Shown piece by piece: positions 9,207 through 22,886 of a stretch of 59,265 nt of DNA. This stretch comes from Candidatus Saccharibacteria bacterium RIFCSPHIGHO2_12_FULL_47_16b. Lineage in GTDB: Bacteria > Patescibacteriota > Saccharimonadia > Saccharimonadales > UBA10212. Where the stretch lies: assembly GCA_001790525.1 (NCBI GenBank), contig MGCU01000025.1:14576-73840 (forward strand), read 5' to 3'. The notes under the pieces were generated by a model. It worked only from the letters and a program-made list of their open reading frames with translations, made no database searches and was not told where the DNA came from. Both the position numbers and the translations under genes were made by a program. Positions within the stretch are counted from its first letter, which is position 1. The number at the start of each line of letters is the position of its first letter.

Positions 9207-9575
9207 ATGATGGAACTGGTGAAAACATTAAAAAAATTTATATTAGTTATTTTCGCACTCAGCCTTTTGACGACTACACTTATCTACTTTAAAACTCCAA
9301 ATTACAGCCTTGACTACGAGTCGATTGGTTGGAATTGCCCCGGGATTCCGTATAGTGTTGGACGGGGGAATTTAAGGGTTGGTTTTCCGATCCATAGCCA
9401 GATCCGAACAGAAATTTATGGAACATGCGGAGAAATTTCCAACAAGTTAAGAGCGAGAGATCTGCTCAGTGTTCTAAAAACTTGGCAGTTCTATGCTGAT
9501 TGGATTTTTTGGAGCTTGCCTCTGTTAGCAGCTGGCTATCTTATCAAGAATCAATATGCGCATAATCGGCATTGA
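9207..9575 (+). CDS. Hypothetical membrane protein
   Basis: 122 aa with N- and C-terminal hydrophobic segments. Overlaps the ruvC start by 20 nt. Confidence 0.4.
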   Translation: MMELVKTLKKFILVIFALSLLTTTLIYFKTPNYSLDYESIGWNCPGIPYSVGRGNLRVGFPIHSQIRTEIYGTCGEISNKLRARDLLSVLKTWQFYADWIFWSLPLLAAGYLIKNQYAHNRH

Positions 9576-10035
9576 TCCCGGCACCGGTTTACTGGGTTTT
9601 GGCATTATTGAGGTTGCCAAAAATGGCAAGCTGATGCTCGTTGACGGCGGTGTCATCCGGACACCGCAAAAAGAAGACGATGCCCAGCGTCTGGCCATTA
9701 TTTTTGATGAACTTTCCGAAATTATTGCTGGAACCAAACCAGCCGAAATGGCGGTTGAAAAACTGTACTTTGCCCAAAACGTCACCACCGCCATGGCGGT
9801 AGCTCAAGCCCGCGGTGTAGCCATAGTCGCCGGCAAGCAAGCTGGACTTGAAATTTCTGAATATACACCGTTACAGATTAAACAAGCGCTTACAGGCTAT
9901 GGCCGAGCCGACAAAAAACAAATCCAAGAAATGGTACGCGTTCTGCTGGGTTTAAAAGTAGTACCCAAACCTGATGACTGCGCCGACGCCCTCGCTTGCG
10001 CCATCACACACGCCATGACCCATCAACAAAAATAG
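9556..10035 (+). CDS. ruvC: Holliday junction resolvase RuvC
   Basis: MRIIGIDPGTGLLGFGIIE... and a C-terminal ...PDDCADALACAITH motif. Confidence 0.9.
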   Translation: MRIIGIDPGTGLLGFGIIEVAKNGKLMLVDGGVIRTPQKEDDAQRLAIIFDELSEIIAGTKPAEMAVEKLYFAQNVTTAMAVAQARGVAIVAGKQAGLEISEYTPLQIKQALTGYGRADKKQIQEMVRVLLGLKVVPKPDDCADALACAITHAMTHQQK

Positions 10036-10059
10036 CCATTCCAAGGAGGCTCCTTGGAA
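10036..10059. repeat. Left flanking hairpin of the Y1-transposase unit
   Basis: CCAT-TCCAAGGAG-g-CTCCTTGGA-A (TCCAAGGAG pairs with CTCCTTGGA). Starts at the first nt after the ruvC stop. Confidence 0.85.
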
Positions 10060-10671
10060 TTATGTGTCCGCTAGCTGAGATTTTACTTCATCAATGACAC
10101 GTTTATGATCTTCATAATTGGCAACAAAACTTTGGTAATCATCCCCTTCAAAAAGATCCAGTATCCGCTGAGGATTTAACCAACCAGCACTTCTAGTTTC
10201 TAAATAGTAGGGAAGGCTTGACCACTCATATTGTCTGTAATTAGGAGGGTTTAAATGAAGGTAACGCGATATGTGTTGCAGATACTCATCCCTGGTAATG
10301 AGAGAAGCTTTAAATCGATCTTGAAAGAGAGGGCCTGAACGACTGTATTTTTTATTAAAGAAACCTGTATAAGAAGTACAGAGACCACTAAGAAGTCTCG
10401 TCATAGCTCTTGAATCTTTTTGATACAGCAGAAGATGGAAATGATTTGGCATGAGACAGAATGCTGACAACTCTATTCTCTTATGCAGCCATTCGTATTC
10501 TCTTCCTTTATTATCCTTGACTGGTGTTTTATCAAGATACCTTTTCAATAAACTAAGAAATACTGCATAGTCTCTATCTTGTAAAAAAATCCTTCGCTTA
10601 TTAACACCACGGTTATAGACGTGATAGAAACTATCCTCAAGATAAATTTTCTCGAGATTGCGACTTGGCAT
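10060..10671 (-). CDS. IS200-like / REP-associated tyrosine transposase (Y1, HUH) family protein
   Basis: FYHVYNRGVNKRRIF ... FCLMPNHFHLLLYQ (HUH motif = HFH) ... GPLFQDRFKAS ... ISRYLHLNP (catalytic Tyr region). Confidence 0.8.
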   Translation of the reverse strand: MPSRNLEKIYLEDSFYHVYNRGVNKRRIFLQDRDYAVFLSLLKRYLDKTPVKDNKGREYEWLHKRIELSAFCLMPNHFHLLLYQKDSRAMTRLLSGLCTSYTGFFNKKYSRSGPLFQDRFKASLITRDEYLQHISRYLHLNPPNYRQYEWSSLPYYLETRSAGWLNPQRILDLFEGDDYQSFVANYEDHKRVIDEVKSQLADT

Positions 10672-10696: not shown

Positions 10697-10720
10697 ACCA
10701 TTCCAAGGAGGCTCCTTGGA
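10697..10720. repeat. Right flanking hairpin of the Y1-transposase unit
   Basis: Identical 24-mer CCATTCCAAGGAGGCTCCTTGGAA. Confidence 0.85.
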
Positions 10721-10747
10721 AACAGGATTTGATGGGATAATAGAATA

Positions 10748-11320
10748 ATGATTGTTACATTGGAAGGTACGATTGCCGAAAAAATCGGACAGGCCGTAAT
10801 TTTGGATGTTGGCGGTGTGGGTTATGGTCTGCTGGTCAGTTTCGAAGATTTTGGGGCTCTAAAAGTCGGTGCTAAAGCCAAACTTTACGTTCATGAATCA
10901 ATTCGCGATAATGCTTTTGATTTATTTGGTTTCAGAACCGAAGAATCAAAAAGACTATTTGAGCAATTGTTGTCAGTTAAAGGTATTGGCCCGAGGATGG
11001 CACTAGCAATTTTAAGCGTTGCCTCAATCGAGCACGTCCGCCAGGCGATAGCCGGTGGCGACGTTAAGTTCATTTCACAGGCCAAAGGCGTCGGCCGTAA
11101 AGCCGCCGAACGCGTAGTAGTTGACCTGAAAGATAAGGTTGGTTTGCCGGCTGCCGAGCAAGCCACCGAATTTTTAACGACCATGGCTGATCCGGGTGAT
11201 GAAGCCTTGCAAGGCCTAGTGGCGCTGGGCTACTCTGTCCAAGATGCCGCCGAAGCCCTCAAAAAAGTTGATAAAAAACTGCCGGCCGCCGAGCGCATCA
11301 AACAAGCCCTTAAAGCTTAA
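10748..11320 (+). CDS. ruvA: Holliday junction branch migration protein RuvA
   Basis: MIVTLEGTI...GVGYGLLVS... then helix-hairpin-helix (LLSVKGIGPRMALAIL, AKGVGRKAAERVV) and the C-terminal domain III. Confidence 0.9.
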   Translation: MIVTLEGTIAEKIGQAVILDVGGVGYGLLVSFEDFGALKVGAKAKLYVHESIRDNAFDLFGFRTEESKRLFEQLLSVKGIGPRMALAILSVASIEHVRQAIAGGDVKFISQAKGVGRKAAERVVVDLKDKVGLPAAEQATEFLTTMADPGDEALQGLVALGYSVQDAAEALKKVDKKLPAAERIKQALKA

Positions 11321-21170: not shown

Positions 21171-21232
21171 AATTCATCAGATCTTATCTGTTTTGCTATA
21201 CTTTTATTGCTGTATTTGTGTATGCCTGACGC

Positions 21233-21271
21233 GGCAGCGTAGCTCAGTTGGTTAGAGCGCGGGACTTTTAC
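21233..21271 (+). pseudogene. Orphan tRNA 5' half (Lys-UUU-like, positions 1-38 only)
   Basis: GGCAGCG ta GCTC agttggtta GAGC g CGGGA cTTTTac, then no complementary anticodon-stem strand, no T-arm and no 3' acceptor. The next tRNA starts 16 nt later. Confidence 0.6.
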
Positions 21272-21286
21272 CCAGCACTTTGGTAC

Positions 21287-21363
21287 GCCAGGGTAGCTCA
21301 GATGGTTAGAGCGCAGGACTCATAAGCCTGAGGTCGCGAGTTCGATCCTCGCCCCTGGTACCA
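21287..21363 (+). tRNA. Elongator tRNA-Met (CAU), CCA encoded
   Basis: GCCAGGG ta GCTC agatggtta GAGC g CAGGA cuCAUaa GCCTG aggtc GCGAG ttcgatc CTCGC CCCTGGT a CCA (G1-U72 wobble, 31-39 A/G mismatch). Confidence 0.75.
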
Positions 21364-21374
21364 GAAGAAACATT

Positions 21375-21698
21375 TTACTGTCCTTGTTCGCTACCTCCGT
21401 ATTCAATAGTTGTTCGTGGCGCATTTGGTAATTGAGTTTTTATTGATTGGAAATAGCGCCTGCAACCCTCGAAGAATACTTGTTCCTCAGGTACCACTGG
21501 TAATGGATCCGTTTTCTCTGGTAATAATCCCCATAAATCCGGGTGGTGCCAGCAAAGATCATGACCACTACTATCACGGTGTGCACGTATACCATTTCGT
21601 AACCTTTTTGCTTCATTGATAAGCTCCTCCCGCGATAAGGAGTCAAGATCTTCATCGATTGGTGTTTGTTCTGCACCAGAGTAATCGGCTTCTTTCAC
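21375..21698 (-). CDS. Hypothetical protein
   Basis: 107 aa. LRNGIRAHRDSSGHDLCWHHPDLWGLLPE looks like a conserved small-protein core that I cannot name. Confidence 0.55.
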   Translation of the reverse strand: MKEADYSGAEQTPIDEDLDSLSREELINEAKRLRNGIRAHRDSSGHDLCWHHPDLWGLLPEKTDPLPVVPEEQVFFEGCRRYFQSIKTQLPNAPRTTIEYGGSEQGQ

Positions 21699-21770
21699 AT
21701 TAATAGTATAAATTATTAAAACGTCAAGTTATAGAGCCATCCAACCACAGACTTGCTAAGATTATAAGCG

Positions 21771-22733
21771 ATGAGAGTGAATATTCCTTGGGGGAAGTAT
21801 ATTTTAGCAGTTTCTGGAGGCGTGGATTCGATGGCCTTATTGCACCTGTTGGTGCAAAAAAACATAGTCACCAGTCAGCAGTCACCAGTCACCAGTCAAA
21901 AAAGGAGACTAGGTACTAAAGACTATAGACTAGCGACTGGCGACTCGACGAGCCTACGGCTCGTCGTGGCGCATTTTAACCATGGAATCAGGGCTGATTC
22001 GGATAAAGATGAAATATTGGTCAGAGATATTGCCAAAGAATATGACCTGCCTTTTGAGGTTGGTTATGGACATTTAGGCTCCAACGCTAGTGAAGATACG
22101 GCCCGCCGGGCTCGTTATCAGTTCCTGGAAGCTGTTCGGCAAAAATATAAGGCCAAGGCCATAATTACGGCCCACCATCAGGATGATCTGATTGAAACGG
22201 CTCTACTTAACATCATCCGCGGCACTAAGCGCAAAGGTTTAAGCGCCATCGCTAGTAACGTTGGTATCCTTCGACCGCTGTTGGACACACCAAAGAAGGA
22301 AATTCTTAAATATGCTCAAAAACACCAGCTTCAATGGCGCGAAGATCCCAGCAACCTCGATACAAAAATCCTGCGTAACTACTTGAGACTTAAAATTATT
22401 CCAAAAATGGACTTACAGCAGCGGCAAAAAATACTGAAAGATATCGATAATGTCGCAAAAATTAATATTGCTGTGGATAGAGAAATTGCGATACTATCTC
22501 AATCAGTAGTTAAAAATGGTAAGATTGAACGATCCAAATTTGCTCTTTTGCCAACAGAGGTAACTCAGGAGTTAGTTGTTTATTGGCTAAGACAACATGA
22601 CATTGCTCAAATTGATAGTCATAGCGTAAGCCGGCTAGCGGTTTTTATTAAGACCGGTAAGCCAGGCACAAATGCATCTGTAAAAGGTACTAGCAAAATC
22701 AAGCTGGAAAAGGATTACGCCCGCTTTGCTTAA
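21771..22733 (+). CDS. tilS: tRNA(Ile)-lysidine synthase TilS
   Basis: PP-loop SGGVDSMALLHLL, then ...VVAHFNHGIRADSD..., ARRARYQFL, ITAHHQDDLIETALLN. Confidence 0.88.
   Translation: MRVNIPWGKYILAVSGGVDSMALLHLLVQKNIVTSQQSPVTSQKRRLGTKDYRLATGDSTSLRLVVAHFNHGIRADSDKDEILVRDIAKEYDLPFEVGYGHLGSNASEDTARRARYQFLEAVRQKYKAKAIITAHHQDDLIETALLNIIRGTKRKGLSAIASNVGILRPLLDTPKKEILKYAQKHQLQWREDPSNLDTKILRNYLRLKIIPKMDLQQRQKILKDIDNVAKINIAVDREIAILSQSVVKNGKIERSKFALLPTEVTQELVVYWLRQHDIAQIDSHSVSRLAVFIKTGKPGTNASVKGTSKIKLEKDYARFA
21864..21947 (+). repeat. In-frame heptanucleotide-periodic array inside tilS (12 units, 84 nt)
   Basis: atagtca|ccagtca|gcagtca|ccagtca|ccagtca|aaaaagg|agactag|gtactaa|agactat|agactag|cgactgg|cgactcg. 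Followed by the 9-bp hairpin CGACGAGCC-tac-GGCTCGTCG (21946-21966). Confidence 0.8.
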
Positions 22734-22760
22734 CAGTTAAATTAGCCTGTTATAATAGCT

Positions 22761-22886
22761 TCAATGCTCAATGCTCAAAGCCCAATGTTAAATGAATGCT
22801 CAAGTAATCAATGCATTAATGAATTGAATCATTGGGTCATTGATAATTCATTGATAATTGATAATTGTGAATTGAAAATTGAAGCG
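22761..22886 (+). repeat. Heptanucleotide-periodic array in the tilS-ftsH spacer (about 18 units)
   Basis: tcaatgc|tcaatgc|tcaaagc|ccaatgt|taaatga|atgctca|agtaatc|aatgcat|taatgaa|ttgaatc|attgggt|cattgat|aattcat|tgataat|tgataat|tgtgaat|tgaaaat|tgaagcg. Confidence 0.7.

Follow-up and report, generated by a model that had tools for sequence, protein, structure and literature searches.

Two kinds of bacterial repeats come close to the element analysed in this work. In Rickettsia, palindromic elements (RPEs) occur as copies of about 150 bp, which belong to families that conserve both sequence and peptide (PMC10969869), and heptamer repeats have been found in Nostoc genomes (bioRxiv 10.1101/2022.06.06.494920). 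The present element lies inside the gene tilS, in a window of 59,265 nt (the whole stretch of DNA that was analysed) from Candidatus Saccharibacteria bacterium RIFCSPHIGHO2_12_FULL_47_16b. The source is a 794-kb metagenome-assembled genome (MAG) of the Saccharimonadales (TM7, candidate phyla radiation or CPR), 95% complete. RPEs and the cyanobacterial heptamer repeats are the nearest described systems, but the element fails the consensus-copy feature of the former (PMC10969869) and the fixed-unit feature of the latter. No description of such an element was found in the literature on heptanucleotide or palindromic repeats in Saccharibacteria. The best explanation, to which we give a probability of about 0.55, is that the heptad segment in tilS is the central palindrome of a three-hairpin module, and that such palindromic repeats are tolerated at the DNA level and exchanged as cassettes, with no aid to TilS.

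The segment 21864-21947 can be read without a break as 12 words of 7 nt, the codon phase cycling through 0, 1 and 2 along the words. It is followed directly by a perfect 9-bp hairpin, CGACGAGCC-tac-GGCTCGTCG, at 21946-21966, and it stands in frame in TilS between SGGVDSMALLHLL and VAHFNHG. Coordinates, letters, register and hairpin had been given by an earlier reading made from the letters of the DNA (the sequence-only reading), and all were exact on re-reading. The fraction of matches is 0.55 at lag 7 versus 0.13-0.32 at other lags, except for the multiple lag 14 (0.45), and AGTCNNNAGTCNNNAGTC occurs 10 times in the window versus 0.00 times in 100 shuffles. The units are imperfect: they differ at 1-3 positions, the longest exact tract is shorter than 3 units, and Tandem Repeats Finder (TRF) reports only 21866-21898 as a tandem array, of 4.7 copies. 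The second half of the heptads is the inverted complement of the first (AGTC versus GACT). The arms 21866-21890 and 21921-21945 are 72% complementary, and the 12 words together make an imperfect 80-nt hairpin with unit 6, AAAAAGG, as its apex. The minimum-free-energy fold of 21855-21975 has -46.8 kcal/mol (z = -6.35). The earlier description as a 12-unit array thus stands as regards the 12 words in register, but what they form is a palindrome of two inverted half-arrays, in the middle of a larger module with three hairpins.

This module covers 136 nt (21831-21966) and can be written X-X'-(CCAGTCA)5-apex-(GACTNNN)6-Y'-Y, where X stands for native codons of helix α1, Y for native codons of strand β2, and X' and Y' for their inverted copies (Table 1). 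The outer stems were found by comparing 12 AGTC-type alleles from other Saccharimonadales. In the window, hairpin 0 keeps a core of TTGCACC (21840-21846), tgtt and GGTGCAA (21851-21857); in most of the other AGTC-type alleles it is a stem of 12-16 bp, in which ATG-xxx-CTT-TTG-CAC-C is followed by an inverted copy read as V-Q-K-x-x. The right arm of hairpin 2 is formed across these alleles by the native codons x-L-V/I-V, and the left arm, in the insert, is read as (D)STS. Over the 12 alleles 85.8% of the cells of hairpin 0 were paired and 10 of its 16 pairs had changed on both sides, with a covariation score of 0.391 (best slid control at most 0.107). The values for hairpin 2 were 93.9% and 5 of 10 pairs, with a score of 0.388 (best slid control at most 0.086); for neither hairpin did any of 500 shuffles reach the score. 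The apexes of the other long tilS alleles examined are likewise A-rich on the sense strand. Genome-wide, automatic and noisy hairpin picking with 60-nt flanks gave 57 A versus 46 T apexes between genes and 13 versus 5 within genes.

How far the likeness to RPEs goes can now be stated. The sequence-only reading had drawn it in principle; it holds for the outcome, an in-frame hairpin insert in a loop modelled as disordered, but not for the long consensus shared among RPE copies. In both cases hairpin-forming repeats lie in frame in unrelated housekeeping genes of a reduced genome, with many copies per genome, and the insert is read as an extra peptide compatible with the fold of the host protein. 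By contrast, what unites the members of the tilS class is limited to a 4-nt core, the 7-nt period and the architecture, and their units vary from one locus to another as well as among orthologous alleles. At tilS the outer stems come from the host gene's own codons, and the same site was hit or replaced repeatedly across the order. Among the features of an RPE or an in-frame miniature inverted-repeat transposable element (MITE), the palindromic in-frame insert was present at tilS; a consensus of ~100-150 nt with a conserved peptide, and terminal inverted repeats with a target-site duplication, were absent. As to heptad repeats, Vioque in 1997 reportedly placed short tandemly repeated repetitive (STRR) heptanucleotides in the cyanobacterial RNase P RNA gene, to judge from the title of that work as cited in PMC2858038. 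Tandem 7-nt units that are abundant genome-wide, mostly intergenic and occasionally inside an essential gene are common to STRRs and to the present class, and their origin is unexplained in both. STRRs differ in that they are described as a few fixed units in heterocystous cyanobacteria, whereas here dispersed tandem units (303 TRF rows of period 7) fall into dozens of types, with no small fixed set, in Saccharimonadales. We know of no description of STRRs that gives them paired inverted half-arrays, a place in frame within protein genes, or hairpins derived from their flanks.

The host gene was identified by sequence and by structure. Its 320-codon open reading frame (ORF) matches PF01171 with E = 4e-47 over residues 9-206, and SGGVDS at residues 15-20 is the SGGxDS signature of an N-terminal PP-loop ATP pyrophosphatase. 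The sequence also matches solved TilS proteins. The AlphaFold2 model has the TilS fold: it matches the solved structures 2E21, 2E89, 1NI5 and 3A2K at E = 1e-14 to 1e-19 and template-modelling (TM) scores of 0.70-0.76, the best being Aquifex TilS 2E21/2E89 (0.74-0.76). A whole-genome search gave one match, i.e. tilS is single-copy. The tRNA set includes three tRNA-CAU genes, and the sole other tRNA-Ile is GAU; from the known role of TilS, lysidine is therefore probably needed to read AUA.

At the protein level, the insert lengthens the α1-β2 turn by 29 residues over the spacing found most often. From the known fold of PP-loop enzymes, this turn should lie at the sheet's edge, across from the nucleotide site. 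No frame but that of tilS is open across the segment; the other five carry 3-4 stops each. The low-complexity residues are encoded as the sequence-only reading had said, and by arithmetic a change of one unit (7 nt) would shift the frame. The model has a mean predicted local distance difference test (pLDDT) score of 84.8; residues 33-59 fall below 50 with no secondary structure, between helix 18-35 and strand 62-70. The insert is thus modelled as a disordered loop in an otherwise confident TilS fold, consistent with the expected surface loop. The insert site holds 34 residues here but only a few in the solved TilS proteins, about 9 in Aquifex and fewer in E. coli and Geobacillus. Together with the minimal spacing in 95 of about 150 loci described below, this agrees with the earlier claim that the insert is lineage-specific and the loop normally shorter.

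To see the same loop in relatives, about 150 Saccharimonadales loci from GTDB genomes and metagenomes were collected, and 126 distinct TilS sequences of the order were scanned for indels. In 95 of the loci exactly 28 residues separate SGG from the second His, which corresponds to a 4-residue turn. The α1-β2 turn was the sole internal indel hot spot of the 126 proteins: 43 had at least 3 extra residues and 31 at least 7, and no other internal site had an insertion in more than 2 sequences. Most long inserts are heptad-periodic and most of these are palindromic, with units that differ among the alleles (AGTC/GACT; AAGCC/AGCT; GAAGG/CTTCATT; CAGGTTA/TAACCT; GTCCAAA/TCGACCT; also GGTTACA, CAAGAAA, GAGATTA, GCCAAAA, TCAAACT, CTCTACC) and several of which are continuous with native codons, e.g. 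GCC-AAA-A and AAA-CAG-G. One allele has a period of 8 (locus L038, about 1560-1680: TAGTCCAC …, then GACTATCC three times) and keeps the inverted AGTC/GACT layout. The median fold z was -3.6 for the long inserts, 76% being below -2 and the lowest at -14.7, but -0.26 for the basal alleles, which indicates that the excess folding belongs to the inserts and not to the site. Where close alleles differ in having an insert, no target-site duplication was seen, and the arrays pass directly into native codons.

Turnover of the inserts was followed on a maximum-likelihood tree of 128 TilS from which the insert columns had been removed. The insert is lacking in 80 of the 128 rows (about 63% of orthologues). 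At least 29 changes on the tree are required to account for its presence, and well-supported branches impose at least 9 of these. Taken by type, AGTC inserts occupy 7 rows and require 7 changes, and AGCT inserts occupy 10 rows and require 10. Three well-supported sister pairs are discordant for the insert (L011/L012, L042/L043 and L096/L152). The only genome of the same genus carries an AGCT-type module at the same loop, and Table 1 gives the identity to it segment by segment. Distant lineages, on the other hand, can have closely similar inserts: those of L093 and L108 are 96% identical versus 66% for the rest of the gene, those of L001 versus L003, L093 and L108 are 84-86% identical (rest of the gene 65-67%), and those of the window and L084 are 73% identical (rest 63%) and have the irregular unit GGTACTA in common. 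Inserts of the same type being more alike than the rest of the gene points to their common descent, as far as such alignments can tell. We read these patterns as modules that are stably inherited, occasionally lost or gained, and sometimes replaced en bloc between lineages. The earlier idea of an intergenic-type repeat that had invaded the gene and been tolerated is retained as to toleration, in a loop modelled as disordered, but a single invasion is too simple, since many lineages carry different palindromes that conflict with the gene tree.

Separately, an ENA contig of 1497 nt (P0002) encodes a mosaic TilS: the N-terminal two thirds, including an AGCT-type insert, resemble the sister species, and the last ~120 residues are those of the window protein. 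It is either a natural recombinant of the two species or a chimeric contig.

Table 1. Positions in the window of the tilS module, of segments compared with the same-genus relative, and of the RAYT-like gene (see text)
Feature	Position	Strand	Remarks
tilS ORF, 320 aa	21771-22733	+	Host of the element; sole tilS of the genome; from ORF list, PF01171 and structure match
PP-loop codons SGGVDS	21813-21830	+	Conserved upstream anchor; nearly invariant in 30 orthologues; 89% identical to same-genus relative
Hairpin 0	21831-21865	+	Helix α1 codons M-A-L-L-H-L, then inverted copy V-Q-K-N-I; inverted repeat I5; partly decayed here
Arm A, five heptads	21864-21898	+	ATAGTCA CCAGTCA GCAGTCA CCAGTCA CCAGTCA; core AGTC; 21864-21865 common to hairpin 0
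A-rich apex AAAAAGG	21899-21905	+	Encodes part of K-R-R; loop in the minimum-free-energy fold
Arm B, six heptads	21906-21947	+	AGACTAG GTACTAA AGACTAT AGACTAG CGACTGG CGACTCG; core GACT; last two bases common to hairpin 2
Hairpin 2	21946-21966	+	CGACGAGCC (in insert, S-T-S), tac, GGCTCGTCG (native strand β2 codons R-L-V-V); perfect 9-bp stem
Segment with PP-loop codons	21751-21830		89% identity to same-genus relative
Segment of hairpin 0	21831-21865		46% identity to same-genus relative
Segment of heptad palindrome	21866-21945		39% identity to same-genus relative
Segment of hairpin 2	21946-21966		43% identity to same-genus relative
Segment downstream	21967-22761		77-90% identity to same-genus relative
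RAYT-like Y1 gene, 203 aa	10060-10671	-	PF01797 above cut-off; between ruvC (9556-10035) and ruvA (10748-11320)
Identical hairpins TTCCAAGGAGCCTCCTTGGAA	near 10042-10062 and 10704-10724		Bracket the RAYT-like gene of the window

The heptads of tilS do not stand alone. TRF gave 303 rows of period 7 over the whole 794 kb versus 74 rows for the next non-multiple period (9 nt). Merging the period-7 rows leaves 256 loci, of which 162 are intergenic, 63 lie at ORF edges and 31 fall inside long ORFs. In-frame arrays occur in about two dozen ORFs that resemble housekeeping genes, the names outside the Pfam-checked set coming from sequence reading. Nine array-bearing ORFs were checked, of which eight were assigned by Pfam (TilS, L1, MnmA, PilD, TruB, Fpg, TsaD and PrmC), while a methyltransferase-like ORF had no Pfam match. 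Palindromes of the AGTC type were found at about 13 loci of the genome, most with the same layout and with a private short GC-rich hairpin after arm B. These loci have the AGTC/GACT core, the period and the layout in common, and their apexes and flanking hairpins are private to each. The tilS insert therefore belongs to a class of heptad-periodic palindromes that is found throughout the genome, and its units are of the same AGTC/GACT type as the intergenic arrays of the window, as had been noted. Profile searches of the genome, a MAG 95% complete, gave no match for MutS (MutS_V), MutL (DNA_mis_repair) or SbcD.

An artefact of assembly was considered as well. In independent Logan contigs from 8 runs, 21700-22200 or large parts of it was reproduced with 0 differences, so that the heptad stretch cannot be attributed to assembly. 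No length variant appeared in these contigs, which can hide rare variants, nor among strains of the sister species (as protein clusters), in which the insert is identical though the strains differ elsewhere. In metagenome runs X1-X10, from groundwater and soil, (AGTCACC)n as found at 21866-21898 also matched hundreds of other contigs with unrelated flanks, and its summed word depth reached thousands. Many loci or organisms in those communities evidently have this unit.

A mechanism can be proposed for the favoured reading. The element would be a selfish or neutral DNA-level repeat that does no service to TilS. Its persistence would be explained by the position of the turn, across the Rossmann-type sheet from the ATP site, and by the loss of all versions that are out of frame, contain stops or are not hydrophilic. 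Arrays may grow in place by slippage of 7-nt units, while intrastrand template switching could keep the arms and the flank-derived stems complementary. Homologous recombination, with its anchors in the bracketing SGGVDS and AHFNHG codons, might then carry whole modules from one lineage to another; these codons are the best-conserved DNA of the gene, and such recombination would be the simplest route of exchange. In E. coli, quasipalindrome template-switch mutagenesis, on which Ripley and also Dutra and Lovett worked, is said to make imperfect inverted-repeat arms complementary by copying one from the other. By analogy it would yield two-sided changes like those in hairpins 0 and 2. It differs, however, in being known for point-mutation hot spots and not for the building of 80-nt periodic palindromes.

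Several points weigh against this account of tolerated and exchanged repeats. The two-sided changes in the outer stems, and inserts that are conserved above the enzyme core, also fit selection on RNA or DNA structure. We infer template switching, and no known process favours units of 7 nt. If permissiveness were all, inserts would be expected in other TilS loops; none carry them, which hints at targeting. Recombination, too, is something we infer, from discordance and from identity contrasts of short, low-complexity segments. Finally, the absence of repair genes rests on a MAG that is 95% complete.

According to the main rival, the heptad palindromes are non-autonomous mobile elements of the MITE or REPIN (paired repetitive extragenic palindrome, REP) kind. 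These would be made or moved on single-stranded DNA by hairpin-acting HUH Y1 enzymes resembling the REP-associated tyrosine transposases (RAYTs), and X-X' and Y'-Y would be footprints of the reaction. We hold this to be unlikely. In its favour, the genome has three RAYT-like HUH genes of about 203 aa each (Y1_Tnp, PF01797), one of them in the window (Table 1), and each is flanked by its own type of hairpin. Hairpins of the RAYT-flanking CAAGG-N-CCTTG types are dispersed (23 sites versus 5.1 expected), and the paralogues on contigs C2 and C26 have dispersed types of their own, with about 11 and about 5 copies. The situation resembles REP/REPIN-RAYT systems such as that of TnpA-REP in E. coli, in that RAYT-like Y1 genes are accompanied by dispersed cognate hairpins, including an in-frame copy in PrmC, and in that REPINs are paired inverted repeats forming long hairpins; private hairpins moreover adjoin most heptad arrays. 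Across 41 relatives, Y1 genes were present in 8 of the 11 genomes with AGTC arrays and in 6 of the 30 without (Fisher p = 0.003, or 0.002 within the family, uncorrected for phylogeny). Among the genomes sampled, the density of period-7 rows per 100 kb was 38, 14, 3, 25, 25, 6 and 22 with Y1 genes versus 6, 2.5, 4, 10, 3, 2 and 6.7 without them (Mann-Whitney p = 0.025, again uncorrected for phylogeny).

On the other hand, no RAYT-cognate hairpin is present in the tilS module, whose hairpins, TTGCACC/GGTGCAA and CGACGAGCC/GGCTCGTCG, are unlike those flanking the RAYT-like genes. Unlike REPINs, the module has no conserved sequence head and is heptad-periodic. It shows neither conserved ends nor a target-site duplication, the units are not the same at different loci and seem to continue the native codons, and the match of the Y1 proteins to NCBIfam REP_Tyr_transpos lies below the cut-off (39 versus 80 bits). 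The association between genomes also has exceptions: G009 has many arrays and no Y1 gene, and G011 and G029 have Y1 genes and few arrays. Within the genome, heptad arrays stand beside the C26 copy only of the RAYT genes, which is uninformative because there is one array per few hundred intergenic bases. As an observation in its own right, the in-frame copy in PrmC (G000 C29:36598) is the cognate hairpin of the C2 RAYT, ACAAGGACCGTCCTTGAA, read as L-Q-G-P-S-L-K, and PrmC also carries two heptad arrays.

Related to this, but quite unlikely in our estimation, is the idea that Saccharibacteria actively write hairpin cassettes into their DNA, even within coding sequence, by means of RAYT-like HUH enzymes or of templated repair. 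The flanks would be copied in inverted form (X-X', Y'-Y), the gap filled with palindromic arrays stepped by 7 nt, and the cassettes traded among lineages by transformation. If so, fixed sites in tilS and other essential genes would be occupied by a structured element whose 'alleles' are interchangeable.

A different explanation is that the module acts as a functional nucleic-acid structure in the tilS-ftsH transcript, for example by pausing translation, by serving as a processing site or by affecting the stability of the mRNA, its stems being kept paired by selection. The strong covariation in hairpins 0 and 2, the extreme stability of the fold (z = -6.35 here, with alleles down to -14.7), inserts conserved above the gene, and the same architecture between genes of operons would all suit this view. 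It seems distinctly improbable, however, when about 63% of orthologues do without the module and close sisters are discordant for it, when unit types and lengths vary freely, and when ribosomes must unwind the structure inside an essential gene. Nor did any Rfam family reach its gathering score, the best match being P37 on the other strand, with 27.4 bits versus a cut-off of 50.

An adaptive protein loop, e.g. a Lys/Arg-rich arm contacting tRNA and selected at the peptide level, is very unlikely. The apex does always encode basic residues on the sense strand. But conservation keeps to the 7-nt register, which passes through all three codon phases, the peptides of different allele types (QSSVVS..., KSQELKAKS..., VTGDRLQV..., STLYPLPSTL) have no likeness or common features, the loop is modelled as disordered, and most orthologues have no insert. 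Least credible is a contingency locus in which slippage by one unit toggles tilS: although 7 is not a multiple of 3 and no mismatch repair genes were found, tilS is single-copy and needed by three tRNA-CAU genes, and instead of uninterrupted identical units with length polymorphism there are imperfect units, with an exact tract under 3 units and, in contigs that can hide rare variants and in sister-species strains, no length variant. Two further candidates were rejected: a sequence-specific ring binder of the 4-nt core, like TRAP or HutP, because the cores vary from locus to locus, and templated addition as by telomerase, because the units vary within an array.

The present case shows an ultra-small, repair-poor genome that tolerates strongly structured palindromes of 7-nt period in about two dozen core-like ORFs, at least one of these positions having acted as an exchangeable cassette throughout an entire order. 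With one loop, many alleles and clear empty sites, tilS offers a repeatable system for the rise and survival of palindromes and non-triplet repeats in coding DNA, and the inserts are natural markers of lateral exchange among uncultivated CPR bacteria. Should the link to the RAYT-like genes be true, widespread 'domesticated transposases' would gain a visible activity.

A caution for annotation concerns the start of tilS, which gene callers place at Met21, downstream of the catalytic PP-loop motif. The public protein record P0001 (300 aa) begins there, at 21831, and the ORF from 21771 regains SGGVDS; records of the sister species have the same mis-start (288 versus 308 aa). Upstream of the gene, the stretch 21176-21750, which includes a 107-aa ORF on the minus strand (21375-21698), could for the most part not be aligned with the same-genus relative, and 21289-21363 matches it in inverted orientation. 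A further heptad array, with units of its own (TCAATGC, then TTGATAA), takes up the tilS-ftsH spacer (22761-22886), which is likewise unalignable. Elsewhere in the genome, only a few bases separate the end of an AGTC-type palindrome, G000 C4:1198-1263 (…TTTTTTGGAGAGTTTGATCCTGGCTCAG), from the 5' end of the 16S rRNA gene.

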